64,000 bases of DNA from an uncultured Pseudomonadota bacterium (GCA_963705975.1 CAVPMI010000001.1:101765-165764); one strand, 5' to 3'. Counted from the first letter of the stretch, positions 13,993 to 41,281 are shown. Notes: a model not told the origin generated them from the letters alone. Program-made: numbers and translations.

Positions 13993-14089
13993 ACTTATTG
14001 CGTCTGGTTACTGTATTGATCGTTAGTATTGTGCTAAATTCAGCCTGATAGCAGGGAATATACAGCTTGGTAAGTCCCGTCGCATTAAC

Positions 14090-14296
14090 TTATACTTTTA
14101 ACCGCTTATCTTCGTTCTGTATAAATTCTTGCTCGGCTTCAAGCCAATCGGTAAGTTCATGGCCGGCCTCAAAACCTCTGTTTTCAGCTTTATAGTAGGC
14201 TATCTCCGCAATTCTTGCTTCATAAGCTAGACTACTTTCCTGGTTATTGGATTGATTTTTTATACTTGTTTGTTCATTTTTGACTGTTTTAGCCAT
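14090..14296 (-). CDS. DUF2934-like small protein
   Basis: 68 aa. IAEIAYYKAENRGFEAGHELTDWLEAEQEF matches my recollection of the DUF2934 signature (AYxxxExRGxxxGxxxxDWxxAE). Confidence 0.65.
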   Translation of the reverse strand: MAKTVKNEQTSIKNQSNNQESSLAYEARIAEIAYYKAENRGFEAGHELTDWLEAEQEFIQNEDKRLKV

Positions 14297-14906
14297 TTCA
14301 CACCTCGCTATTAATTAAACTGTTTTAATACCCGTTGATTTTCTTTTATATTGCAACTAATTATCAAATAAATAAATTGAACAAATAATGAAAGTTGTTA
14401 AGTATATTTTTACGCAAATTTTTGATTGCTATTTAACTTTCTCTGCTTGAAAAAAATCAAGCCATTATTAATTTAAATAATATTACATCGTCTACGATCT
14501 CTAATTTGCCTATCTATAAAGTTATTAGATTGATTCTTATTAATCCTAGCATAGAATGCTGTTCAAGAAAATCCGATAATTTACTGATCGTTTTTCTAGG
14601 CAAAATTCAAACAAACAATAAGTTGTGGGCCCATACTATTTTGAGAGGTAACTTAAATCCCGTTAATTCTTAGATAGTTATAAACCCGTCGGTGATTTTA
14701 GGTTTCAATGTCTTTTCTGGTAAAAAAATAAAAATCATCTACGACATAGTGGTCTTGTTACTTTCTGTCCAATTATTGTCATTTCCGAATTTGTTATGTA
14801 CTCTATCAGCTTAACCTTTCATTAACCTTACAGTTTTAACAGAATAGTGTAATCTAGCTAACTTCCGCCAACTGCTTGAAGAAAATCTAAAATACAAAAA
14901 CTTAGC

Positions 14907-15578
14907 ATGAGAATTTTACTCGTTGAAGATGATGCGGTTTTAGGGGATGGTCTTAATCGAACCCTTAACGATAATGGATATGATGTCACTTTGGCAGTGA
15001 CAGGGGGGTATGCGGATAGTGCTTTACGTACTCAGACCTATGATTTGGTCATTTTAGACCTTGGATTGCCTGATATCGATGGCAGGGAGGTGTTAAGACA
15101 ATTGAGAGCTCGTAAATCCACTTTGCCTGTACTTATTCTGACCGCTCTGGATAGTGTTCATGATCGGGTAGACGGATTAGAGCTTGGCGCTGATGATTAC
15201 TTGATTAAGCCGTTCGAAGTTTCAGAATTGTTAGCTCGGATACGCGCTCTACTGCGTAGAAGCCTTGGGGGCTTTAGCCATGATATTATGTTTGGACGGC
15301 TGGTGCTTGACACCCTTAATCATCAAATTAGAGTAGATGATGCGCCAATATTGATGCCGTCGCGTGAATATAGCGTTTTGGAAGCGTTGCTATTAAAGGT
15401 TGGCCGTGTGGTTAGCAAAGATAGTATTGCCCAGCGTATTGCCATACACGCTGAAGGTTTGGCGGACAATGCCATTGAAGTTTATGTTCACCGTCTACGT
15501 AAACGACTCCAGCCTTTTGGTATTGGCATCAGAACAGTGCGAGGACTTGGTTATTTGCTGGAACGAAATAAAGGGTAA
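14907..15578 (+). CDS. OmpR-family response regulator
   Basis: 223 aa. Receiver with DDxx...LVILDLGLPDIDG and a winged-helix C-terminus (...VYVHRLRKRL...RGLGYLL). Confidence 0.9.
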   Translation: MRILLVEDDAVLGDGLNRTLNDNGYDVTLAVTGGYADSALRTQTYDLVILDLGLPDIDGREVLRQLRARKSTLPVLILTALDSVHDRVDGLELGADDYLIKPFEVSELLARIRALLRRSLGGFSHDIMFGRLVLDTLNHQIRVDDAPILMPSREYSVLEALLLKVGRVVSKDSIAQRIAIHAEGLADNAIEVYVHRLRKRLQPFGIGIRTVRGLGYLLERNKG

Positions 15579-15593
15579 GCGCGGGATAAGCCT

Positions 15594-16649
15594 ATGTTTA
15601 AAAAAATAGTCCCAACGCTTCAGGCTATTTTGCGATACTTGTTGGCTGTTGCTATCTTCGCAATCGCTCTTTTTTTGCGTTTTTGGCTACTCCCCGTTGA
15701 AGCCGGTTACCCGCGCCTAACGATTTATCCTGCAACAATACTCTGCTTTTTTATTTGTGGTCTTGGACCAGGCATTCTCGTTACCTTATTAAGCGCTGTA
15801 GTGTCCTTTTACTATTTCGAGCCCCATCATTATGCATTTGAGCTTACTAGCGAAGCTGTAGTGGTTTTGCCAATCTATTTATTGTCTTCGTTAATGATTG
15901 GTTTATTAGTTAAGAAATCACAAAATGTTGCAAAAAAGCTACTGTTGACCAATGAACACTTAAATTCGTCCATGAACTCACAGCGACGGTTCATTGATAA
16001 TGCCGCGCACCAATTACGCACACCTTTGGCGGGGCTAAAAATTCAGGTAGATCGGGCGCTATGCGCCGATGATTTAGAGGTAATAAAGCCGGCTTTAGCA
16101 CATATCAGGAGATCTACGGATCGGGTAGCCCACTTAAGTACGCAATTGCTCGTTCTTGCTCGGTCAGAGTCCTATTCGCAAAGTCCAAAAGAGTTTAAGG
16201 CATTAGATTTAGTCAAACTTGTCCGGGATTTCTGTGTTGATTGGGCGCCAAATGCCCTAGAAAGAGATATGGAACTGAGTTTTGAAGCACCCGTTGATTT
16301 CCCATGGGTTATCGGAGATGAAACCCTAATCTGGGAATTACTGAGTAATCTGCTGGATAACGCAGTGTGTTATGGTAAGCCATGTGGAAAAATCAATGTC
16401 AAAATAGAGACTAATTCACAAGTATTATTGACCATTGAAGACGATGGCCCCGGCATTCATTTTAACGAGGCCGACAAGGTTTTCGAACGATTTTATCGGA
16501 TTCCAGGCAGTCCAGGCGAAGGCTGCGGATTGGGTTTGGCCATTGTCAAGGAAATTGCCGACTTACATGCCGCGGCAGTTAAGGTTGGCGCGGGTTCCTT
16601 TGGTAAAGGAACCCGGATTGAGGTTGCATTCAACAAGATCAAAATCTGA
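15594..16649 (+). CDS. Sensor histidine kinase with DUF4118-like membrane domain
   Basis: 351 aa. KdpD-type 3-4 TM N-terminus, H-box NAAHQLRTPLAGL, and ATPase boxes DDGPGI and GCGLGLAIV. Confidence 0.85.
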   Translation: MFKKIVPTLQAILRYLLAVAIFAIALFLRFWLLPVEAGYPRLTIYPATILCFFICGLGPGILVTLLSAVVSFYYFEPHHYAFELTSEAVVVLPIYLLSSLMIGLLVKKSQNVAKKLLLTNEHLNSSMNSQRRFIDNAAHQLRTPLAGLKIQVDRALCADDLEVIKPALAHIRRSTDRVAHLSTQLLVLARSESYSQSPKEFKALDLVKLVRDFCVDWAPNALERDMELSFEAPVDFPWVIGDETLIWELLSNLLDNAVCYGKPCGKINVKIETNSQVLLTIEDDGPGIHFNEADKVFERFYRIPGSPGEGCGLGLAIVKEIADLHAAAVKVGAGSFGKGTRIEVAFNKIKI

Positions 16650-29791: not shown

Positions 29792-29938
29792 TTAATACAG
29801 CTCTCCAACTAAATCCAGATAAGTCATATATAGCCGCATATCAAACTCCAGTTGGTGATAGTCCGGTTCCATATAGGCGCATAACTTATAAAATGCCTTG
29901 TTGTGGTCTTTTTCACGCAAATGCGCCAGTTCATGCAC
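29792..29938 (-). pseudogene. C-terminal fragment of a DUF45/YgjP-type zinc metallopeptidase gene (split by the insertion)
   Basis: Own minus-strand translation: VHELAHLREKDHNKAFYKLCAYMEPDYHQLEFDMRLYMTYLDLVGELY*. Its N-terminal partner is at 39123..39486. Confidence 0.75.
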
Positions 29939-30009
29939 AAAGATCACGCAAGGGTTTTCATAATATTAATTATTATAAATCAATAATTTAGATAATATTG
30001 ATTTTAAGG

Positions 30010-30116
30010 TTTACCCCATGTTTTACCCCAAAACTTACCCCAAACTTACCCCAAATTTACCCCAAATTTACCCCAAATTTACCCCGAAATTTACGGTTTA
30101 CGGGCGTAATTTACAC
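30010..30116 (+). repeat. Phased array of (T/C)TTACCCC repeats (7 copies, 11-12-bp period) plus 3 degenerate copies
   Basis: Copies start at 30010, 30022, 30034, 30045, 30056, 30067 and 30078. Degenerate copies follow: TTTACGG (30090), TTTACGGG (30097) and ATTTACAC (30109). The array lies between the left junction and the 3' end of the 348-aa recombinase gene. Confidence 0.8.
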
Positions 30117-31144
30117 TCATTATTTTCAAAACTCATATTGTTTTTTGTAACAAGCTTAACTTTTCTTGTGCCTCGGATGTCACCGACCTTTACAGATGAT
30201 TCTTTTTTTGAATTACCATAAAAAGTTTGTGATATATCGTTACAGTGACCGAGAACAATGCTAACTTGTTCGTCAGTCAATGTTGCTTTGATGTGTGATG
30301 CAAAAATATGTCTAAATGTGTAAGGCGATATGTAATTTTTAAGACGAGGAAAAACAGACTTTGAGTAATTTCTCATCTGTTCGCCAAAATTTTTAGCGCT
30401 ATCAATTTTTATTATCGATTCGCCATTATTGAGATGATTTAAAAGATAATGAAATTCAGGTGTATCACTTTTTACTGTAAAACTTCTAGTTTCTTGCCCA
30501 TATTTGCCTTTATGAGTTTTTTTAGAATTTACTATAAATCTTATACCACCATCGCAAACAGCACAAGAAACACCACCTTCAATTTCGGCGGGACGAGCAC
30601 CACATAAAGATAACAGGCATATAGGCAAAATATACTTACTATCCATTTTTTTAAGATAATCAAAATAATCCTTCTGAAATTCACGAGGAAGCTTAGAAAT
30701 CTGCAATTTCTTTGACCTTGATTTTTGTTTAGGTTTATTGGCTTGCTTCCATTCAGATTCATATTGTCCATTCTCAGATTTTTTTAAATGATTACCGGCA
30801 AAATCTGGCGGTATGCGTTGAATACATTCAACACAATATTGTAGCTTTTTAATAAGATTGATCTTTTTTTGATGTTCTTTTTCTTTATCGGCTTTTATTA
30901 ATAATTCCTTCGCTTTTGTTTCATAAATGTAACACCAAGCCGCTCTATACGCATAATACGTATTACGGCTTTTAGATAGCGTAAGAGGGTCAGTAGAGTG
31001 TTTAGCCATCCGACGTACGCATAATGCGTACTGTTTGATGGTAGGCTCTGATGGCTGTTTGCGTGGTGGTAATGCTCGAATGTAAGCACTTGCTTCATTC
31101 ATGACCATATACCATGATTGAATATCTTGATTATCCATAATCAA
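30098..31144 (-). CDS. Tyrosine recombinase-like protein (atypical box II)
   Basis: 348 aa. LSLCGARPAEI (catalytic Arg), ...SPYTFRHIFASH... (R-H present, but Tyr where the first His of HxxR is expected), VLGHCND and QTFYGN (candidate nucleophile Tyr). Confidence 0.7.
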   Translation of the reverse strand: MIMDNQDIQSWYMVMNEASAYIRALPPRKQPSEPTIKQYALCVRRMAKHSTDPLTLSKSRNTYYAYRAAWCYIYETKAKELLIKADKEKEHQKKINLIKKLQYCVECIQRIPPDFAGNHLKKSENGQYESEWKQANKPKQKSRSKKLQISKLPREFQKDYFDYLKKMDSKYILPICLLSLCGARPAEIEGGVSCAVCDGGIRFIVNSKKTHKGKYGQETRSFTVKSDTPEFHYLLNHLNNGESIIKIDSAKNFGEQMRNYSKSVFPRLKNYISPYTFRHIFASHIKATLTDEQVSIVLGHCNDISQTFYGNSKKESSVKVGDIRGTRKVKLVTKNNMSFENNECKLRP

Positions 31145-31227
31145 CCTACATTTAAAAGTTATATGTTTTTACTTCATTTTATTACGTAAAAAAGCGCGTG
31201 AACGCTATCGCTAACAGCCACGCACCT

Positions 31228-31253
31228 ATATTATTGCCATATGGCAATAATAT
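31228..31253. promoter_or_regulatory. Perfect 26-bp palindrome ATATTATTGCCATATGGCAATAATAT upstream of the 348-aa recombinase gene
   Basis: All 13 pairs around the centre at 31240/31241 were checked base by base. It lies between the end of a small ORF (31257) and the recombinase start (31144). Confidence 0.5.
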
Positions 31254-31256
31254 TAA

Positions 31257-31430
31257 CTAATACATTTGCTCTTCTTCCTTACGCTCCATATCTTGCTCAA
31301 GTGTCCACTGCAGATAAGCTTGTTCTCCAAGTTCATGAAGATAATTTATATCAGCAATCTCTTCACAGCGTGGGCAAAGAAAATCATACATTGTACTTTG
31401 AGAAGGGTGAACTATACGTATTGTGATCAT
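31257..31430 (-). CDS. Small hypothetical protein (57 aa, acidic C-terminus)
   Basis: Part of track ORF 31257..31502. The internal start MITIRIVHPS... has AAGGA upstream, and the protein contains CPRC. No family recognised and the coding status is uncertain. Confidence 0.3.
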   Translation of the reverse strand: MITIRIVHPSQSTMYDFLCPRCEEIADINYLHELGEQAYLQWTLEQDMERKEEEQMY

Positions 31431-32119
31431 AAATAATTCCTTAAAATAAATGGTTGTCATTAGGACTAACTTTAATAAATGTGTATGATAATAATATATC
31501 ATGCAAAAATTTAAGTGTTAATACTAGTTAAAACAACTTTATTATAAAAACAATAGGTTTTTTCAAAATATATATTTAAAAGTACGGACGTACGAAAACT
31601 ATTTGCATTCGTTTTGAAGGGGAATTTTAATAGCTAAAAATGGTATCGCGTATATAAAATAATTATAAGAAATGGTTATTTTCAGGTTCATCGTTGTGTT
31701 AGCATCAAAGGCTGGCAATGGTATAGGTGGTAAAAATGGTATAATGCATGCAAGGTATTGATAGTATTTGGTAATTTCATGGTGCACCATCCTTTTAGCA
31801 TCAAGAATTGGCAAATGCTACGTTTCCCTGGCATTGAAAGACCTACAATTAGCTAAATTTGACTTGAAATTACAGTATCTAGTTTTGGGATAATTATGTA
31901 CTATACAATTTTTTGCATTAACGTATTAGCGAGTAAGAGCATGGAAAATTTTATTCCCATCATTAGCAGTATGTTTGTTTGTGTCGTGAACCAGTTTAAT
32001 TCAAACTTCGTTAAAGTGCCTATCCTAGAACATATAAATATAATAACCAAAGCTAAATTAATTTGGCATTATATACAACCAATAATTATTAATAAATGCT
32101 AGTTTTCTAAGCGTAGGAG

Positions 32120-33559
32120 TTGATTTTGAAATTTATTCGGAAATTTTTTCGCAAAAACCAGGCTTTGCCCTTAGTTAACGTTACAAACTATTCAACAAGT
32201 GAACCTAAGCAAACAGTTGTAAATAACGAAAAGACCAAGGTGATTAAGCTCGCGGCTGAGCAGGGAGATGTAAATGCACAATTTTATCTTGGGTATATGT
32301 ATGACCATGGAAAAATAGTAGTTCAAGATTATAAAGAAGCATATAAATGGTACAAATTAGCCGCAGAACAGGGAAATATAAACGCACAATTGCAACTTGG
32401 CTTTAAGTATGACCAAGGAATAGGACTAATTCAAGATTATAAGGAAGCTTTTAGATGGTTCACATTAGCCGCAGAACAGGGAAAAAAGGATGCACAATTT
32501 GCAATTGGCTATATGTACGACAATGGGAATGGAGTAAGTCAAGATTATAATGAAGCTATTAAATGGTACAAATTAGCCGCAGAACAAGGTGATGTAATAG
32601 CACATTTTTCTCTTGGTTTTATGTATTATGAAGGAAATAAAGTAATTCAAGATTATAAGGAAGCATTTAAATGGTTTACATTAGCAGCAGAACAAGGAGA
32701 TGTAAAATCACAATTTAATCTTGGTCTTATGTATGATAAAGGACAAGGACTAATTCAAGATTATAAGGAAGCTTTTAAATGGTATAAATTAGCCGCAGAA
32801 CAAGGTGATTCCGATGCACAAAATAAACTTGGTGTTAGGTATGAGCAGGGGAAAGGTGTAATTCAAGATTATAAGGAAGCTTTTAAGTGGTACAAATTAG
32901 CCGCAGAACAGGGTGAAGCGCTTGCACAAGTTAATCTCGGTCTTATGTATGAAGAAGGACAAGGAGTAATTCAAGATTATAAGGAAGCTTCTAAGTGGTA
33001 CAAATTAGCCGCAGAACAAGGTGATGCAAAATCACAATCTAAGCTTGGCTATATGTATGACAAAGGATTAGGACTAATTCAAGATTGTAAAGAAGCTTAT
33101 AAATGGTACAAATTAGCCGCAGAACAAGGTGATGTAATAGCACAATATAATATTGGTGTTATATATAATATAGGACAAGGAGTAATTCAAGATTATAAGG
33201 AAGCTTTCAAGTGGTTTAAATTAGCCGCAGAACAAGGTGATGTAATAGCACAATATAGTCTTGGTAATATGTATGATCAAGGCAAAGGAGTAATTCAAGA
33301 TTATAAGGAAGCTTTCAAGTGGTTCAAACTAGCCGCAGAACAAGGTGATGCTGATGCACAAAATAAACTTGGTATTATGTGTAGTCTAGGGCAAGGTGTC
33401 GATCAGAATTATATTTTTGCACATAAGTGGTTTAATATTTCAGCCGTAAATGGGGATAAAAATGCAAGAAATAACAGAGATATTTTAGCAAGTAAAATGA
33501 CGTTAGATCAAATAGAAACAGCACAGAAATTAGCAAGAAAATGTATGGATAATTCATAA
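32120..33559 (+). CDS. Sel1-like repeat (SLR/TPR-like) protein, 11 consecutive 36-aa repeats plus C-terminal cap, no signal peptide
   Basis: The repeat unit KLAAEQGDxxAQxxLGxMYxxGxGVIQDYKEAFKWY occurs 11 times, followed by FNISAVNGDKNARNNRDILASKMTLDQIETAQKLARKC. AGGAG at 32115-32119 favours TTG 32126 as the true start. The N-terminus is basic and not hydrophobic. Confidence 0.85.
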   Translation: MILKFIRKFFRKNQALPLVNVTNYSTSEPKQTVVNNEKTKVIKLAAEQGDVNAQFYLGYMYDHGKIVVQDYKEAYKWYKLAAEQGNINAQLQLGFKYDQGIGLIQDYKEAFRWFTLAAEQGKKDAQFAIGYMYDNGNGVSQDYNEAIKWYKLAAEQGDVIAHFSLGFMYYEGNKVIQDYKEAFKWFTLAAEQGDVKSQFNLGLMYDKGQGLIQDYKEAFKWYKLAAEQGDSDAQNKLGVRYEQGKGVIQDYKEAFKWYKLAAEQGEALAQVNLGLMYEEGQGVIQDYKEASKWYKLAAEQGDAKSQSKLGYMYDKGLGLIQDCKEAYKWYKLAAEQGDVIAQYNIGVIYNIGQGVIQDYKEAFKWFKLAAEQGDVIAQYSLGNMYDQGKGVIQDYKEAFKWFKLAAEQGDADAQNKLGIMCSLGQGVDQNYIFAHKWFNISAVNGDKNARNNRDILASKMTLDQIETAQKLARKCMDNS

Positions 33560-33567
33560 TCAATAGT

Positions 33568-34377
33568 ATGTGTCCTAAAGAAATCAAAAAAGAGCCTGTT
33601 TGCATTAAAGAACTCGAAGTACCGGTTCTTGTTGCCCACTTTTCTGAATGGGTAACTAATTTATGCAAACGCTTTCAAACGACAGAGGACGACATGCAAT
33701 TGTTTATTGAGAAGCGTAATCGTATCATAAAATATTTGCAAGATGAATTAATACCACTATCTTACTTTTGTCAACATTACACTTTGCAACACCCTGGAAT
33801 GTACATTAGGTACTATCCAGGAAGCCAACAATCTTTTGATGCCAAGATACTTGATTCAAATAAGGAAGATTTTGAGAAACTTGAAGTGACACTAGCAGAT
33901 TTTGGCTACGAAGAGAGAATCAGAAACGAGTTGTTATTAAAGTTCGGCTGCGTACCGCTATACTCAACTTTTGATAATGAGATACTTGATATAGATGGTG
34001 AGGTAACAACAGATAATTTTAACCACAAGAGCAAGAGATATGAGTTGTTATCAAAGTTTGGCTGCGCCCCTGAATACATCGATGGAAAACCTCATCCTTG
34101 TAAAGCACCAGAACTGGAAGTGATCAATGCCAATATTATTGTTGATAAATGCATTGAAAAAGTTCGAGCCGCCGTTGAAAAAAAAATCAAAAAAAGCGAA
34201 TCCGGTAAATACAAAGATTGTAACCTAATTGTTGCATTTGATGACTTTTGCTTGTTATCGGAAGAACACTTTGCACAAACCCGCGCTGAATTTTTCCAGA
34301 TCAAGACTTGCTTTCCAGTTGTCTACTATGTCGGTCTCACAGGTAGGTTGTTTCTTAAGGTGTCAAGTCTTGGTTGA
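33568..34377 (+). CDS. Hypothetical 269-aa protein, apparently co-transcribed with the Sel1-repeat gene
   Basis: The ORF starts 8 nt after the Sel1 gene stop. It has an internal duplicated motif, ELLLKFGCVP (aa 121-130) and ELLSKFGCAP (aa 159-168). No family recognised. Confidence 0.5.
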   Translation: MCPKEIKKEPVCIKELEVPVLVAHFSEWVTNLCKRFQTTEDDMQLFIEKRNRIIKYLQDELIPLSYFCQHYTLQHPGMYIRYYPGSQQSFDAKILDSNKEDFEKLEVTLADFGYEERIRNELLLKFGCVPLYSTFDNEILDIDGEVTTDNFNHKSKRYELLSKFGCAPEYIDGKPHPCKAPELEVINANIIVDKCIEKVRAAVEKKIKKSESGKYKDCNLIVAFDDFCLLSEEHFAQTRAEFFQIKTCFPVVYYVGLTGRLFLKVSSLG

Positions 34378-34651
34378 GGCTGTATATTCTAGTCAGTAGC
34401 TACTGATAGTGCCTACGCAGAATTTCAATTACCTTCAAACGATGGGCAGAAAAGTAATTCAAAGGCTTTTAGATACGATACGAGATAAATATTGACCTAA
34501 TCTTTTCTACAATAGGATACTATCTAGCCATTATTAATCTGATTAATTGCAATATAAAAATCGGAATGTACTATTGATTTATTGCTTAATCAATACTCGA
34601 AGAAGAAAAGCAGGGATATTTATATGTAACTATAATAAATTATAATATAAA

Positions 34652-34882
34652 TTATTTTAGACGTAAGATGGTATCTTCTTCAATGTCATCATTAATTATA
34701 TTTTCCGTATACTTTTTATTCTTTTCATCTTTAAGGATTGAAATAAATAAAGTATCACCACCGGATGAACCTGATGAGCCGCAAGATCCTTCAGGTAATT
34801 TCTTAAGTAATGATGTGTTTAATACAAACATTTTAGTGTTTTCTGATAGGAACGGATTTCTATTTTCCATATATATTTCCAT
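34652..34882 (-). CDS. Hypothetical 76-aa ORF (low confidence)
   Basis: Track ORF in very AT-rich DNA downstream of the Rep gene, containing GSCGSSGSSGG. There is no other support. Confidence 0.2.
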   Translation of the reverse strand: MEIYMENRNPFLSENTKMFVLNTSLLKKLPEGSCGSSGSSGGDTLFISILKDEKNKKYTENIINDDIEEDTILRLK

Positions 34883-35117
34883 ATTTAAATTTGTAAACTT
34901 AAAAATTTGACATAGATTGGTCTTTAGGTTAATGCCAAGTTTTATTTTTTTAAGTAATTTAATGTATTAAGTAAAAATGATTATAATTAATTTATAAATA
35001 ACATAAGTGTTTATATATATTTATCCCCTAACAAAACTATAGCATACAAATAGAGTATCTCAATAGTAAAAAACTTATTTAATTAACATTTTAATAGTTG
35101 TATTGTATTTTTTATTC

Positions 35118-36929
35118 TTACAACAGTAAATTGTTATGAGTATTATATAAGGAATATAAAAACTTATATGTTTTATATATATCTCTATTATGTATTATTA
35201 TATGCTTATAATAATTTACAACCACAACCGCCTTTGTTTTTTTATTATCATCATCATTATTATTTTTATTTATATTATTTGCGCTCCGCGTACACTTATT
35301 GATAGTAATTCGAGAACAAACAGGCGTTGTCTCGTGCGCTGCGGCAGTGGCCGCCTCGCCCATTCCATCGCCTGTTTGCACGGCGTCCGCCGCATTAAAA
35401 CTAAATTCATCCAAACATTCGGAAAGAGTATTAAATGATTGACTAATAGAATTACCAGATATATATTTATTTATAACAAAAGACCACTCTTTTATACGTG
35501 TAATAGTAGTTAAGCCATTGATAATTACACCTTTTATTTTTTTCTTATCTTCTTTATAATTATTTACATAATCAAGCTTATGAAGCTTAACGTCATTAGA
35601 TAAAACCAAAGTCATAAATTTAGAGTAATCCTTAAAAAATGAACATACACGCAACTGCTCAAGAAGTGGATCTGATTGTTTATCATTACGCAAGCGTCCA
35701 ATCTCACGCCATAAACCAACAGCGCAACCGCCAAAAAATTGAAACTGACGAATAGCCCAATCTGAACTAAAACCACGAATACGCTCGCCTTGTTCGGCAT
35801 GACTAACTTCGCCGCGATTTGCGCCTGTATTTTTACCTATATACTTAGCAACGTAACCCGCCGCACCGGCCTTATTAGGATCAAGCTTAACTGATTTAAA
35901 ACGTGAGCCTGAATTTGGAATCTTACTATTGCCTTTACCGAAATATGTAAAACCTTCCGAAAGATGATTATGACCCTTAAGCGGAGCTGCGCCATTTTCG
36001 CAACCATCAACTTTTAAAGCTTGATATGACATACGTTCGTGAACTCTATCCGCATGCTGTGGCGCAAAAAATATTAAAATATGGCGATGTGTACAGCCAT
36101 CACGATGCGGCTCTGTAACCTGCAAGCCAATTATATTAATGCCATCGCGCGCGCAGGCAGAGCGAAAACGTGCCCAGACTTTTTGTAAGTGATTTTTACT
36201 ATCTAAAGGTTCAGCACCGCTATACTTTTTGTTTACAACACTACCTGGACAAGAATGAAAAGATGAAGGACAAGTTATAGTCCAAAAATAAGCCGCCATG
36301 CCGTTTTGCTTTGCATATTCTTGATAACCATGAATACGAAGCATTAACTCATTGTATCGATTTTGTGGATTTGCTTGAGACTTATCATATACACCAAGCA
36401 TACTTAATCTTTTACCCGTTGACTGATCAAAAATAAAAATCTTAGCCATCATTTCGCGTATTGAATTTTGCTTTTCGCGATATTCCTCTAAATTTTCATC
36501 AGTGATATAGCGATTTTTACCGGTGTCAGGATTTGCACCCAATAAGCCTTTACGCATTGCATACATATTTGCAGCACGCTTACGATAAGTCTTCACGCGT
36601 TTATTCCAAAACTTACGCATACTTACTTTTACTTTAAATGCATAAAAATGTTGATAAGTTGGACAACCGAACGTTGTAAACCTTAAAAACTTTCTGACAT
36701 TCAATATAAAATCAAATTCATCCGGGTAACACATTGTAAATAATTCGATTATCTGCAAATATTCATAATTATGAAGATAATTAATATCAAAAGTTAACAA
36801 TTTACCATCAATAAATGATTCAAAATAATCTAACACTTTTTCAGAAATTAACGATCTTTCGTTTTTGACGTTAGACATAAAATTACAAATCCATTTGTTT
36901 AATCTATTTATATTAGTATAATAGCACAT
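35118..36929 (-). CDS. HUH-superfamily rolling-circle replication initiator (phiX174 gpA / P2 gpA-like)
   Basis: 603-aa ORF with the three RCR motifs in canonical order. These are FWTITCP (aa 215-221), EPHRDGCTHRHILIFF (HUH; aa 273-288) and GYVAKYIGKN (two-Tyr Y-x-x-K-Y; Y359/Y363). The exact start is uncertain and the C-terminal ~60 aa are low-complexity. Confidence 0.75.
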   Translation of the reverse strand: MCYYTNINRLNKWICNFMSNVKNERSLISEKVLDYFESFIDGKLLTFDINYLHNYEYLQIIELFTMCYPDEFDFILNVRKFLRFTTFGCPTYQHFYAFKVKVSMRKFWNKRVKTYRKRAANMYAMRKGLLGANPDTGKNRYITDENLEEYREKQNSIREMMAKIFIFDQSTGKRLSMLGVYDKSQANPQNRYNELMLRIHGYQEYAKQNGMAAYFWTITCPSSFHSCPGSVVNKKYSGAEPLDSKNHLQKVWARFRSACARDGINIIGLQVTEPHRDGCTHRHILIFFAPQHADRVHERMSYQALKVDGCENGAAPLKGHNHLSEGFTYFGKGNSKIPNSGSRFKSVKLDPNKAGAAGYVAKYIGKNTGANRGEVSHAEQGERIRGFSSDWAIRQFQFFGGCAVGLWREIGRLRNDKQSDPLLEQLRVCSFFKDYSKFMTLVLSNDVKLHKLDYVNNYKEDKKKIKGVIINGLTTITRIKEWSFVINKYISGNSISQSFNTLSECLDEFSFNAADAVQTGDGMGEAATAAAHETTPVCSRITINKCTRSANNINKNNNDDDNKKTKAVVVVNYYKHIIIHNRDIYKTYKFLYSLYNTHNNLLL

Positions 36930-37304
36930 CTTTTTTAAATTAAAAATGATATATTATTAATATATTATAAGTAAATTATATATTATTATAATCATATTAT
37001 ACATGGTACTATTTACATTAAAACTAACGTATAACAACAGTTGTCGTTTGCTCGCGCGTGAGTCTTATACCGCCCTGCGCGCGGCCGGCGAAGGGTTGAA
37101 ATAATTTATAAAATTACTTATTAATTAGCGCATTGCACCGCAACGGCTAACGAATTAAGATCAAAAGCTATCAATAATGGAGTAAGCGCCTGGAATGCAT
37201 TCACGAAGAATGAAAGGCGTGAGTTGTTTTAAAGAAAGAACAAAAAAACTCGCGGGTAGTATGTGCTCGTTTTTTTTATAAATGGATTATATTTATTATT
37301 AAGA

Positions 37305-37528
37305 TTAGATTATCTATTGCATTATAATTAGATTATCTGCTAAAATGTAAATCAAAAAATAACTCTGGTGTGAATTTCAATCGTCTTTTTTATTTAATTA
37401 TTTGTTTCACGTGGAACAGTTATAATGTTAGATAACTATATAGGTATTATTTAGCTGATAACCATTTAATAATTATAATGCCATTATATACTTTATATTG
37501 TGATTATAATTATGAAATGATTATCTCG
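37305..37528. repeat. Scattered TTAGAT(T/A)A(T/C)CT-type repeats (iteron-like) in the Rep-int intergenic region
   Basis: TTAGATTATCT at 37305-37315 and 37328-37338 (23-bp spacing), TTAGATAACT at 37428-37437 and GATTATCT at 37519-37526. Confidence 0.35.
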
Positions 37529-37612
37529 ATTATAAAAGCAAAATAAGTATAAAGGTATTATATATAAATAAAAACAAACAAATAAACAAACTAACTAACA
37601 AATAAACAAAGT

Positions 37613-37698
37613 GGTGTAAATTAAAGGTGTAAATCGGTGATTCTTACACCTGTAAATCATGAGTGTAAATTACAGGTGTAAATCGGTGATTTTTACAC
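37613..37698. repeat. Nested direct/inverted repeat cluster built on TGTAAAT / TTACAC
   Basis: xxTGTAAAT occurs at 37613, 37626, 37649, 37662 and 37675. The 17-mer GGTGTAAATCGGTGATT occurs twice (37626-37642 and 37675-37691), each time followed by TTACAC. There is also a 9-bp perfect inverted repeat, CACCTGTAA (37647-37655) and TTACAGGTG (37670-37678). Confidence 0.7.
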
Positions 37699-39006
37699 TC
37701 AGATATGGCTGTAAGAAAAAGGGTATTTTATAAGCTCAATACCTTCTTTTTTTAACGCATAATCCGTACCACCAGAATAAAGACCGTAAGTGATAGTCTT
37801 CTTTTTATGACCGACAATATCAGCCACAGCGCCTTCGGGAAATTTATGATTTTCTAACTGCGTAACAAAAGTTTTACGGATCGAATGAAATACTTGTAAA
37901 TCTGAAAAATCAAAAGAGGCTTTCAAGCGACAAAATCTATTTTTAATACTATGCGAACGCTCACCATAAGAATTTGGCTTTTGATCTGTTAAGAGATAAC
38001 CATCTTTTGTATTGGCAATTAATCGCTTAACAACTGGCATAATTTTTGAATGAATAGGAAAATTACGAATACCTGCGCGAGTTTTACTATCACAAATATT
38101 TATTGTAAATTCATTCAATTCATAATCAAAAATTACATCCTCAACTTTTATATTACAAATTTCCTCTATTCTTGCGCCTGAATATGCGGCTAAAAGTATT
38201 AAATCAAGTAAATCATAATCTATACCATAATTGCGGCGGTCTCTTTGCCAGCATCTTTCGTACATGTTTACAATATCGATAGGCTTAAAAGGTATCCAAC
38301 TTTCAGCCGATTCCTTTTCTTGAGTGATTTTAGACTTAGAACCCAAAACACCTAAAAAATGTATAGTTAAATCAAGTTTTGAATTATCACGAACATATTC
38401 AATAAATGCATAACAATTTGTTTTTATACGTGATATGGTCGAAAAACTTCTTTCTTCCTCTAGAGACTTAAACCATGTGCGAAGCGCATAATGTTCAATA
38501 TTATTAAGGATTGGAAAATAATCGATAAAAAGCCTAACATCTTTTGATTTACGCTCATTGGTTTTTATTGAATGTTTTAAACCTGCTTGCCAAGAAAAAT
38601 AGTAAGTATCAGAAATTAATGCTTCACCATCAATGACTTTTTGCATAACACCCAAACCCTCTTCACCATATTTTTTATAAATACGTGACTGAGTAGCTTC
38701 AAATTGTATTTGCCGGTCTGGATTCAGTTCCATGCCTATATCAGCATATTCATTAATAGTTTTTATTTGATCCCAAAACGGCTTCCAAAACACCCCCTCG
38801 CAAATTAATTCTGAACCTTGCCCCCTCGCGTTAGCAATTTGAGATTTCCACAGCATGACGTATGGCGCAGATTTAAGCTCTGCCTTTTTTTCATTCGATT
38901 CTTTAAGTGAGACTTTAAACTTAGATTTTCCGAGAATTTTACGCACATCCTTCGGAATTATAAGCAAAGCATAATATGTATTACCGCGCTTTTCTAAATA
39001 TGACAT
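37699..39006 (-). CDS. Phage-type tyrosine integrase
   Basis: 435 aa. N-terminus RGNTYYALLIIPKDVRKILG (typical integrase arm-type domain), then AYSGARIEEI, FHSIRKTFVT (HxxR), IVGHKK and TYGLYSG. Confidence 0.9.
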   Translation of the reverse strand: MSYLEKRGNTYYALLIIPKDVRKILGKSKFKVSLKESNEKKAELKSAPYVMLWKSQIANARGQGSELICEGVFWKPFWDQIKTINEYADIGMELNPDRQIQFEATQSRIYKKYGEEGLGVMQKVIDGEALISDTYYFSWQAGLKHSIKTNERKSKDVRLFIDYFPILNNIEHYALRTWFKSLEEERSFSTISRIKTNCYAFIEYVRDNSKLDLTIHFLGVLGSKSKITQEKESAESWIPFKPIDIVNMYERCWQRDRRNYGIDYDLLDLILLAAYSGARIEEICNIKVEDVIFDYELNEFTINICDSKTRAGIRNFPIHSKIMPVVKRLIANTKDGYLLTDQKPNSYGERSHSIKNRFCRLKASFDFSDLQVFHSIRKTFVTQLENHKFPEGAVADIVGHKKKTITYGLYSGGTDYALKKEGIELIKYPFSYSHI

Positions 39007-39026
39007 TTGGTTACCTGAGCAATTAA

Positions 39027-39058
39027 TTTACCCCGGCATTTTACCCCAGTTTTACCCC
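39027..39058 (+). repeat. Three TTTACCCC repeats (same orientation as the left-end array)
   Basis: Copies at 39027-39034, 39040-47 and 39051-58, between the integrase start codon and the right junction. Confidence 0.75.
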
Positions 39059-39122
39059 AGCAACCAGCCGACAAAGCTTACAGGCCAAGGCCCGCAAGGG
39101 TTTCAGGTCAGCTGTGATCATC

Positions 39123-39486
39123 CATGCACTGTTATCATGCGCAAAAATTCCAGCGGCGCTTGTTTGAACACAGAGCCGATCCTAATTTCATGTTTGGCTT
39201 TCAAATTACTGCCTTGCACTCTGGAAACAAAGGAATGCAAACCTAAGGCTTGGTGGAGCACATCCAGTTTATCGTCATAAATGATTTTGCTCAGCGGGCA
39301 GGATTGCCGTAGATATTGGTTCTTGATTTCCATCACATAGCTGTACAGGGTTTTGTCGGTGCAAATACTGTGTGGATTCGGATATTTTTTCAGCAGCACA
39401 GCAGCCAGTTTTTGACTGTCTAGTAGTTTGAGCACCTGATCTGTGACGGTGGGCGCATAGCCGGCCAAATATTTTAAAGAGCGCAT
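39123..39486 (-). pseudogene. N-terminal fragment of the DUF45/YgjP-type metallopeptidase gene
   Basis: MRSLKYLAGYAPTVTDQVL...IGSVFKQAPLEFLRMITVH, then element-derived G-stop. The start, 39486, lies 11 nt downstream of the upstream gene stop. It joins in frame to 29792..29938. Confidence 0.75.
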
Positions 39487-39496
39487 AGTAAAAGCT

Positions 39497-39784
39497 TTAA
39501 TTCCACGGCGGTAAATCATTGTCATAGGCGACAAAATCTTTAACGCTTGGCCGGGTGATGGTATCGGCTGCCGGTTTGCCGGCTTTGGTTTGGTCTTTTG
39601 CTGATGCGGGTTTTGCAGGTGAATCCCTGGTAGCTGATTCCTCCGCCCAATTTGCAAATAACGCGATGTCAACAGTACCCGGCGCATACCATTTTTTAAC
39701 GGAGGCATCCCATCTTGCGCCTAAGGCTTTTGCTGCGTCCTTTTCGGCATACGGAACATTGAGGTAGGTTTTTGTGCTTGTCAT
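39497..39784 (-). CDS. DUF5710-like small protein
   Basis: 95 aa. YLNVPYAEKDAAKALGARWDASVKKWYAP matches my recollection of the DUF5710 motif seen at the N-terminus of TraC-type primases. Confidence 0.65.
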   Translation of the reverse strand: MTSTKTYLNVPYAEKDAAKALGARWDASVKKWYAPGTVDIALFANWAEESATRDSPAKPASAKDQTKAGKPAADTITRPSVKDFVAYDNDLPPWN

Positions 39785-40347: not shown

Positions 40348-40980
40348 CTAATGAAGGTGGGTATAGCTACGCATTTGCCCGACTAACACCCCCTGGATTT
40401 CCACTTGCTGTGGTTGGTAGCGCATAGCTTCCATTTTTGAGTTGGCCGGAATTAACAAAGTTTCGTGCGGGTATTGCTCAATAAATTTCAAAGTAGCTTC
40501 GCTTTTGTCGACTAAAGCCACGACGATTTCGCCGTTGCGGGCGTGGCTGCGTTGTTCTATAACCACCCAATCGCCGTCAAAAATACCTTCTTCGCACATG
40601 GAGTCGCCTTTAACTTTCAGCACATAACAGGCATTTTCGGTTTTTATTTGTTCCGGAATCGCCATGTAACTAATATTTTCGATGGCTTCAATTGGCCGGC
40701 CTGCAGCGATATAACCGATAAAAGGTAATTTGTCGTTATCCTTGGCCTTGGATATTAAGTTTTTGGCTTGTTGGGTTAAACGAATACCACGCTGTTTGCG
40801 CTCGGGTGCTTCAATTAATTGCGCTTCAATCAGGGCCTTAATTTGATGATGCATGGAGCCGCGCGATTTTAAGCCTAAAGCTGCACATAATTCGTCAAGC
40901 GTTGGCGGGTGTAGAAAGCTGTCCTGGCTCTGTAGCAGGAAATCGAGTATTTCTTTTTGTTTGCGAGTTAGAGTGTGCAC
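40348..40980 (-). CDS. lexA: LexA repressor
   Basis: The track ORF extends to 41076, but the likely start is GTG 40980 (VHTLTRKQKEILDFL...). It has a winged HTH, the Ala-Gly cleavage region GYIAAGRPIEA and the S24 peptidase motif VKGDSM. Confidence 0.9.
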   Translation of the reverse strand: MHTLTRKQKEILDFLLQSQDSFLHPPTLDELCAALGLKSRGSMHHQIKALIEAQLIEAPERKQRGIRLTQQAKNLISKAKDNDKLPFIGYIAAGRPIEAIENISYMAIPEQIKTENACYVLKVKGDSMCEEGIFDGDWVVIEQRSHARNGEIVVALVDKSEATLKFIEQYPHETLLIPANSKMEAMRYQPQQVEIQGVLVGQMRSYTHLH

Positions 40981-40984
40981 TTGT

Positions 40985-41043
40985 GTTCCTAATTTGTTCT
41001 TGGTTAAGATAGCATAAGAATAAAAATAGAACAAGTGGAGAAC
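40985..41043. promoter_or_regulatory. Two GTTC-N7-GTTC / GAAC-N7-GAAC motifs upstream of lexA (candidate non-canonical SOS boxes)
   Basis: GTTCCTAATTTGTTC at 40985-40999 and GAACAAGTGGAGAAC at 41029-41043, both on the + strand. No CTGT-N8-ACAG is seen. Confidence 0.3.
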
Positions 41044-41281
41044 TAATGTATTACAAAAATAATTTGAAATATCCATGCAAATTAGCTGTGCTAAGAAATT
41101 CGCAGTTAGTTAATCGACAAGCTTGAATTGAAAGCATAAAATCGCCGTTCCAAGCGCTTTGACGCTTGTTGAGCTTTAGTCCGTGTTGCCGAGGCCAAAT
41201 CTTTGTTACTAAATGGTTTAAGTGCTAAGCAACATCATGATCCATTGTTTTTGAATCAATAATTATAAAGGGAGAGGCTTT

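Follow-up and report, generated by a model that had tools for sequence, protein, structure and literature searches.

How did a conserved metallopeptidase gene come to lie in two pieces on either side of a 9,191-bp block of AT-rich DNA, and what is that block? The question is raised by a 64-kb stretch (hereafter the window, whose coordinates are used throughout) from an uncultured Pseudomonadota bacterium (GCA_963705975.1 CAVPMI010000001.1:101765-165764), a Methylococcales-like, methane-oxidiser-like gammaproteobacterium. A first-pass annotation of the window had proposed that two minus-strand reading frames are halves of one DUF45/YgjP-type zinc peptidase gene, cut at its HEXXH motif by a mobile integrative element with the core-site geometry of tyrosine recombinases, and our analysis supports that overall interpretation. 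The block is cleanly mapped as an insertion in the zinc-binding-site codons of a conserved metallopeptidase gene, and we consider it to be an element that integrated into the HEXXH codons of a ygjP-like gene by conservative site-specific recombination, with a tyrosine integrase (Int) that acts by a lambda-style mechanism; we put the probability of this reading at about 0.88.

The N-terminal fragment of the split gene (39118..39486, minus strand; assigned by translation and full-length alignment) runs from M1 to ITVH and ends on the minus strand as ...ATG ATA ACA GTG CAT GGA TGA (MITVHG-stop), the glycine and the stop codon being supplied by element DNA. The C-terminal fragment (29792..29938, minus strand; VHELAHLREKDH...GELY-stop), whose minus-strand translation reads VHELAHLREKDHNKAF...GELY-stop, matches Pfam family PF01863 by itself at 9.2e-9 and is colinear with a related locus that has no insert (L001, below). 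Joined at the Val-His codons that they share, the fragments give a 167-amino acid protein of the YgjP-like (M48/DUF45) family; this join, for which the annotation had called for a Pfam comparison, matches PF01863 at 7.7e-12, and the matched residues (91-150) cross the junction. Thousands of homologues of the joined protein came out of a search of 5.8 billion protein clusters; most of those listed are exactly 167 amino acids long, and the named ones belong to Methylococcales (Methylovulum, Methylomonas, Crenothrix) and are annotated as M48/DUF45 metallopeptidases. Orthologues align with the join from end to end (100% coverage, 74-91% identity) and without gaps, including at the junction. Residues H121, E122 and H125 of the HEXXH motif are invariant in this alignment, and the insertion point falls at codons 120-122, the Val-His-Glu of that motif, which bears out the proposed cut at HEXXH. 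Since the gene is cut there and no full-length reading frame is left, the insertion very probably inactivates the peptidase, as the annotation had also held. Neither half shows decay yet: the reconstituted protein departs at 1 of the 56 alignment columns that are conserved at 95% or more, and the corresponding figure for 81 intact orthologues has a mean of 0.77 and a median of 0.

The empty site is present in relatives. An intact orthologue had been expected between the hypothetical gene on the nadE side and the DUF5710 gene, and the contig that carries an 89%-identical homologue (P0003, on L001, ENA ERZ19395456) has at exactly that place an uninterrupted peptidase gene for 167 amino acids. 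Gene order on this contig is that of the window minus the insert (LexA, a 50-amino acid protein, a 112-amino acid protein, DUF5710, the YgjP-like protein, a 368-amino acid protein, NadE), and the attB region reconstructed from the window is colinear with it (82% nucleotide identity), the alignment running through the junction without a gap. The attB stretch reads ATGATAACAGTGCATGAACTGGCGCAT in the window and ATGATAGCGGTGCATGAACTGGCGCAT in L001. A wider scan of GTDB, with one genome per species, found the gene intact at all of the 80 best orthologous loci out of at least 556 ygjP-matching stretches; these 80 include Methylovulum, Methylobacter, Methylophaga, Photobacterium and Geomonas, and there is no other insertion in ygjP among them. 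The DUF5710 gene (39497-39784 in the window) directly precedes the ygjP-like gene in Methylococcaceae-type loci, an arrangement found at 12 of 81 orthologous loci.

The borders of the insert are exact. The heptamer CATGCAC on the plus strand (GTGCATG, or Val-His and the G of Glu, on the gene strand) is present at 29932..29938 and again at 39123..39129, 9,191 bp apart; because the flanking bases differ on both sides (T and C before the heptamer, A and T after it), the shared repeat is exactly 7 bp. The element, counted with one copy of this core, thus occupies 29939..39129 (9,191 bp) and is absent from the L001 locus. At 32.9% G+C its composition is foreign: the window has 46.5% elsewhere and 46-48% in the 10-kb flanks, and no other block of it is as low in GC; a milder second dip, to 38%, lies at 14001-16000. 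Both the identical heptamers, at the same coordinates, and the AT-richness of the insert had been reported in the first-pass annotation, and the latter now has a computed basis.

An AT-rich block of this kind might have been joined to the chromosome in silico, and two contigs of the ENA assembly ERZ25039528 are chimeric inside the element, which indicates that the region is hard to assemble. These contigs, L088 (2645-4723) and L089 (6681-7171), are 100% and 99.9% identical to parts of the element and then pass abruptly into foreign DNA, the breaks falling within rep, at window position 35745, and at the int end, at 37703. We regard both as chimeric joins at the AT-rich region because both run into foreign DNA of 55-65% G+C and both come from one assembly; the 100%-identical Rep fragment on L088 and the elongated integrase on L089 (P0265) were accordingly rejected as alternative contexts or an excised form of the element. 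That the window itself is such a chimera is barely credible, for misassembly would not put the break between two halves of one gene that are in frame and share a 7-bp repeat, and the right junction is identical in two further assemblies (L002, Logan ERR11523671; L089, ENA ERZ25039528), three in all.

What do the ends of the element say about how it was inserted? When they are joined they read GTGATCATC-CATGCAC-AAAGATCAC, in which the core-type arm C (GTGATCATC, 39114..39122, plus strand) and its inverted partner C' (AAAGATCAC, 29939..29947, plus strand) surround the 7-bp overlap. GTGATCATC and GTGATCTTT, the reverse complement of AAAGATCAC, agree in 7 bases out of 9, and complementarity is complete over the outermost 6 bp (GTGATC/GATCAC). 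A core-overlap-core arrangement of this geometry is the one established for lambda Int. The predicted junction sequences are ...GTGATCATCCATGCACAAAGATCAC... for attP and ...GCGCCAGTTCATGCACTGTTATCAT... for attB; these strings and the partly complementary 9-bp arms, as first proposed, were reproduced here. The annotation had also drawn attention to a second direct repeat just inside the junctions, and CGCAAGGGTTT does have exactly two exact copies in the 64-kb window, one just inside each junction (29947..29957, plus strand, starting 8 bp after the core; 39093..39103, plus strand, ending 19 bp before the core); they are asymmetrically placed, and we do not retain the weight given to the pair.

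The most informative feature of the attachment site is one that the annotation did not contain, namely two arrays of the motif TTACCCC. Seven tandem units, mostly with an 11-bp period, lie at 30011..30085 (plus strand; putative P'-arm integrase sites) and three at 39028..39058 (plus strand; putative P-arm sites), 22-52 bp upstream of the int start; of the 13 copies of TTACCCC in the window, 10 lie no further than about 160 bp from one or other junction, and all 10 are on the plus strand. The unit reads GGGGTAAA on the int strand, and similar units accompany related integrases, whose contigs we examined (same domain architecture, 38-40% identity). Two GGGGTAAA units 13 bp apart are found 35-55 bp upstream of int in L003; in L004, L005 and L006 a pair of GTGGTAAA units occupies the matching place upstream of int and another pair the far end of the element, which in the L004 type is about 9.2 kb long and is bounded by a 29-nt repeat of the 3' end of tRNA-Ser(gga); and in Chromobacterium violaceum (L092, CP150454) a GTGGTAAA pair lies beside tRNA-Ser(cga), about 9 kb from int. 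One relative, L090, has no exact copy of the motif. We read the TTACCCC or G(G/T)GGTAAA repeats as putative arm-type sites of this integrase family, which would make attP about 260 bp long. The target has its own regularity: across 79 orthologues, five positions of the 7-bp core show little or no variation (codons GTN CAY G), and 24 of 60 sampled orthologues have the core in its exact form. Because these five bases are fixed or nearly fixed by the Val-His-Glu codons, the target is unusually stable for a coding site.

A short direct repeat around an insert can also be a target-site duplication made by a transposase, with the GATCAC ends, which lie 3 bp in from each junction, as terminal inverted repeats. 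We think this very improbable. Searches of Pfam, PHROGs and NCBIfam found no DDE or other transposase in the element, two tyrosine recombinases are present instead (below), the arm-type arrays at the two ends are direct rather than inverted, and relatives of the integrase use long att repeats at tRNA-Ser. The same three databases gave no match to a virion, lysis or conjugation gene in the element.

A recombinase gene had been proposed just inside each end, and both are there. At the right end the case is clear from Pfam: int (37699..39006, minus strand) encodes an intact, heterobivalent-type tyrosine integrase of 435 amino acids with a DUF6538 N-terminal domain (PF20172, 1.4e-8) and a Phage_integrase catalytic domain (PF00589, 9.9e-15), matches phrog_1 at 3e-30, and has the motifs GARIEE, HSIRK, VGH and LY in its translation. 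The 348-amino acid open reading frame (ORF) at the left end (30098..31144, minus strand) has no Pfam match alone; it has two domains and no arm-binding domain. An exhaustive HMMER search gave 788 representative relatives. In an alignment of 45 members of this family R184, K209, R278 and Y309 are invariant and Y275 and H300 nearly so, the family profile matches XerA (5hxy, 2.8e-7), XerD, IntI4 and the Tn1549 Int, and 27 of the 45 relatives match PF00589. An AlphaFold2 (AF2) model of the protein has a mean confidence score (pLDDT) of 93.8, and its top 9 fold matches in the PDB are all tyrosine recombinases. Since catalytic residues, family profile and predicted fold agree, we call it an Xer-like recombinase. 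Relatives of this protein were located in three settings: cryptic enterobacterial plasmids of 2.3 kb, a plasmid-like contig of the TrfA type, and the neighbourhood of a Tn3 remnant. Finally, the rep gene (35118..36929, minus strand) encodes an intact rolling-circle replication endonuclease of 603 amino acids of the Phage_GPA family (PF05840, 2.5e-52; phrog_91, 'nicking at origin of replication', 8.3e-98) with HUH (HRH) and YVAKY motifs in its translation; its identity to the Rep proteins of phages like P2 and HP1, and to that of a corticovirus, is about 30%.

The element is probably a lambda-style integrative, non-phage island with a 7-bp overlap that replicates itself, and we picture its cycle as follows. 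The 435-amino acid Int would bind the predicted arm-type G(G/T)GGTAAA sites, three in the P arm and seven in the P' arm, all in one orientation, and also the inverted core sites GTGATC...GATCAC, and strand exchange would take place across the CATGCAC overlap that attP and attB have in common. The HUH/YxxKY rolling-circle Rep would then replicate the excised circle. The Xer-like recombinase would most plausibly resolve multimers, a role suggested by the small plasmids on which its relatives sit, and a Sel1-repeat gene with its 269-codon neighbour (below) would be cargo. As virion and conjugation genes are lacking, any transfer from cell to cell would need a helper.

Several observations weigh against this picture. 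That Int rather than the 348-amino acid recombinase is the integrating enzyme is a choice that we infer, and the mobility of the element is deduced from its anatomy. No excisionase candidate was recognised, the small ORFs of the element being without matches, although such proteins are small and diverse. The 24-nt sequence formed by the right end plus the core, which a circular form or another copy of the element would contain, has 0 matches in JGI metagenomes and IMG/VR, and the arm array has 0 in IMG/VR. An intact allele at 100% identity to the peptidase is absent from the 5.8 billion protein clusters, where the best is 91% identical. No second instance of the element or of the target site was found, and the next-best relatives of Int and Rep are only about 40% and 30% identical, respectively. 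Finally, the left junction is known from the window alone; an exact-protein look-up of the 348-amino acid ORF, aimed at confirming that junction, returned no record, probably because its start codon is called differently elsewhere.

Some of these points would suit a former mobile island or integrated rolling-circle plasmid that is now fixed and unable to excise. Neither excisionase, transfer genes nor a circular form was detected, the element is unique to one lineage, and its coding density is low, with AT-rich spacers of about 0.7-1 kb. All parts nonetheless look intact: the two core copies are identical, neither arm array is disrupted, the genes for Int, Rep and the Xer-like recombinase are full-length with their catalytic residues, and the halves of the host gene are undecayed. 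Immobility of this sort is thus unlikely, though it deserves more weight than any other alternative that we considered.

Undecayed halves raise the converse possibility, that the interruption is a reversible switch (regulated gene integrity, or active lysogeny) in which SOS read-through from the LexA operon drives int and excision restores the peptidase. The genes lexA, those of the 50- and 112-amino acid proteins, DUF5710, the ygjP N-terminal fragment and int are co-directional with gaps of 9-116 bp, and a search for a terminator in the stretch that separates the truncated gene from int gave none. GAAC-N7-GAAC boxes occur just twice in the window (40985-40999, minus strand; 41029-41043, plus strand), each no more than 65 bp upstream of lexA, and both are conserved in L001 (2447-2461 and 2491-2505). 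They look like an alphaproteobacterial-type LexA operator in a Methylococcales-like genome, and the canonical gammaproteobacterial box CTGT-N8-ACAG is absent. The lexA ORF as called (40348-41076) has 242 amino acids and its relatives 209-210; its true start is probably the GTG at 40980, which would put both boxes in the promoter region. If such a switch existed, DNA damage would induce excision, and a WLM-like metallopeptidase would be reconstituted at the time of need.

A regulated switch should, however, recur across strains or species, and the interruption is found in one strain only, with all 80 sampled orthologues intact. No restored allele (protein clusters) and no circle (JGI metagenomes, IMG/VR) was found, nor was an excisionase, and the GAAC boxes are putative LexA sites. 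Linkage of lexA and ygjP occurs at 1 of 81 loci and is confined to this lineage (lexA lies upstream of DUF5710-ygjP only in the window and L001), and a recent insertion explains the undecayed halves equally well. We therefore consider a reversible switch improbable, and its fullest version, an SOS-coupled switch at the end of a lexA-led operon in which an integrase lineage has moved from tRNA-Ser to HEXXH-encoding DNA, slightly more doubtful still.

The gene content led us to reject several other identities. A phage or phage satellite (P2-like prophage, P4-like element or phage-inducible chromosomal island) is not indicated, for there are no structural genes (capsid, tail, terminase) or satellite hallmark genes (primase-helicase, capsid-size redirection), and the sole PHROG matches of annotated function among the 8 ORFs scanned are to integrase and to 'nicking at origin of replication'; the Sel1 protein matches PHROG families of unknown function and one weak DNA-binding family. 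An inovirus or corticovirus was rejected since morphogenesis, packaging ATPase and coat proteins gave no matches, and corticovirus GXT1010 shares only Rep with the element. The 269-amino acid ORF was considered as a counterpart of the PM2 major capsid protein, which has the same length, and was set aside because it matches nothing and its structural model is unusable. A tRNA target fails because there is no tRNA in the window, and cargo that encodes a defence system fails because the sole PADLOC match is spurious and lies on the Sel1 repeats.

How does the element compare with systems that are known? Like the integration modules of lambda, P2 and HP1, it has a 7-bp identical overlap with inverted core sites, arm-type repeats on both sides, an attP of about 260 bp and int beside att, and its Rep belongs to the gpA family of P2 and HP1. 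It differs from them in that it has no phage structural, lysis or immunity genes and no recognised excisionase, in its seven tandem P' units with an 11-bp period, and in the N-terminal domain of Int, which is the uncharacterised DUF6538; we found no mention of DUF6538 in the literature, and the family of such integrases is nearly absent from sequenced phages (3 weak partial matches). Its closest counterparts are the islands of about 9 kb at tRNA-Ser (L004, on a Methylotenera-like metagenome contig, and L092), which have the same Int architecture (38-39% identity), an inward-facing int at one end, and pairs of G(G/T)GGTAAA close to each end. Those islands use the tRNA-Ser 3' end with a 29-nt repeat and keep the gene whole, whereas here the repeat is 7 bp inside a coding gene that is broken; they also have other cargo and replication genes, with no GPA Rep. 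The pSAM2-type actinomycete integrative and conjugative elements (AICEs), and ICEBs1 with its NicK, are integrative elements that undergo rolling-circle replication after excision. The present element, likewise small and integrated, resembles them in that a tyrosine integrase is combined with a rolling-circle initiator of the HUH class, but its initiator belongs to the Phage_GPA family rather than Rep_trans or RepSA, and no transfer protein was found.

Several integrative elements split genes: skin in sigK, SPbeta in spsM, phi10403S in comK and phiSa3 in hlb. Others, candidates for 'regulated gene integrity', have reportedly come from the TIGER work. As in these cases, an element that bears an integrase interrupts a coding sequence in mid-gene here, and precise excision would restore the gene; those elements have been shown to excise in a condition-dependent way or are conserved across strains, whereas ours is a single occurrence known from its sequence. 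A literature search gave nothing that links YgjP, or its HEXXH motif, to an attachment site. The first-pass annotation had called integration into a protein active-site codon, rather than a tRNA or intergenic site, uncommon, which overstates the case, since 43.4% of about 1.75 million islands mapped by TIGER/Islander are in protein-coding sequence (PMC12424338). Those islands have a size peak at 10 kb, and 58% cannot be classified by gene content (PMC12424338). What is less usual is an insertion in mid-gene, on a catalytic motif, that does not restore the reading frame.

The element is thus a further small genomic island of a familiar sort, the product of an ordinary kind of event, and it leaves current understanding unchallenged. 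It is set apart by its target in a catalytic motif, by an integrase family otherwise found at tRNA-Ser, and by the unusual presence of a GPA-type Rep together with two tyrosine recombinases. It provides a mapped set of attL, attR, attP and attB sites, with a putative arm motif, G(G/T)GGTAAA, for the uncharacterised DUF6538 integrase family, and indicates that this family can use a protein-coding target besides tRNA-Ser. A target held partly constant by the catalytic-motif codons of a widely conserved gene is a plausible route to a broad host range, which may be of interest for integrase prospecting.

The remaining features of the element lie between its three recombination and replication genes. 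A gene for a Sel1-repeat protein of 479 amino acids (32120..33559, plus strand; PF08238, 1.4e-122), with 11 repeats and a 108-nt period, is followed 9 bp downstream by the orphan 269-amino acid ORF (33568..34377, plus strand). The latter has no match in Pfam, PHROGs, NCBIfam, PADLOC or PDB, and its single-sequence AF2 model has a pLDDT of 34. The two form a tight two-gene cargo module (32120-34377); the genes for Int, Rep and the Xer-like recombinase are all on the other strand. The element has no Rfam RNA match; this includes a GC-rich patch at 37040-37095 (GTTGTCGTTTGCTCGCGCGTGAG...GCGCGCGGCCGGCGAAGGG), inside the rep-int spacer of about 25% G+C, which may be a replication origin. The int stop codon is followed immediately by two 36-nt direct repeats (37614..37698, plus strand) that form hairpins (z = -3.86), each with a pair of GTGTAAAT units 13 bp apart. 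This unit is one base off the arm-site consensus and in the opposite orientation, with a fifth copy at 30109-30116 (minus strand), and the 36-nt repeats might serve as additional Int sites, as a terminator or as an origin.

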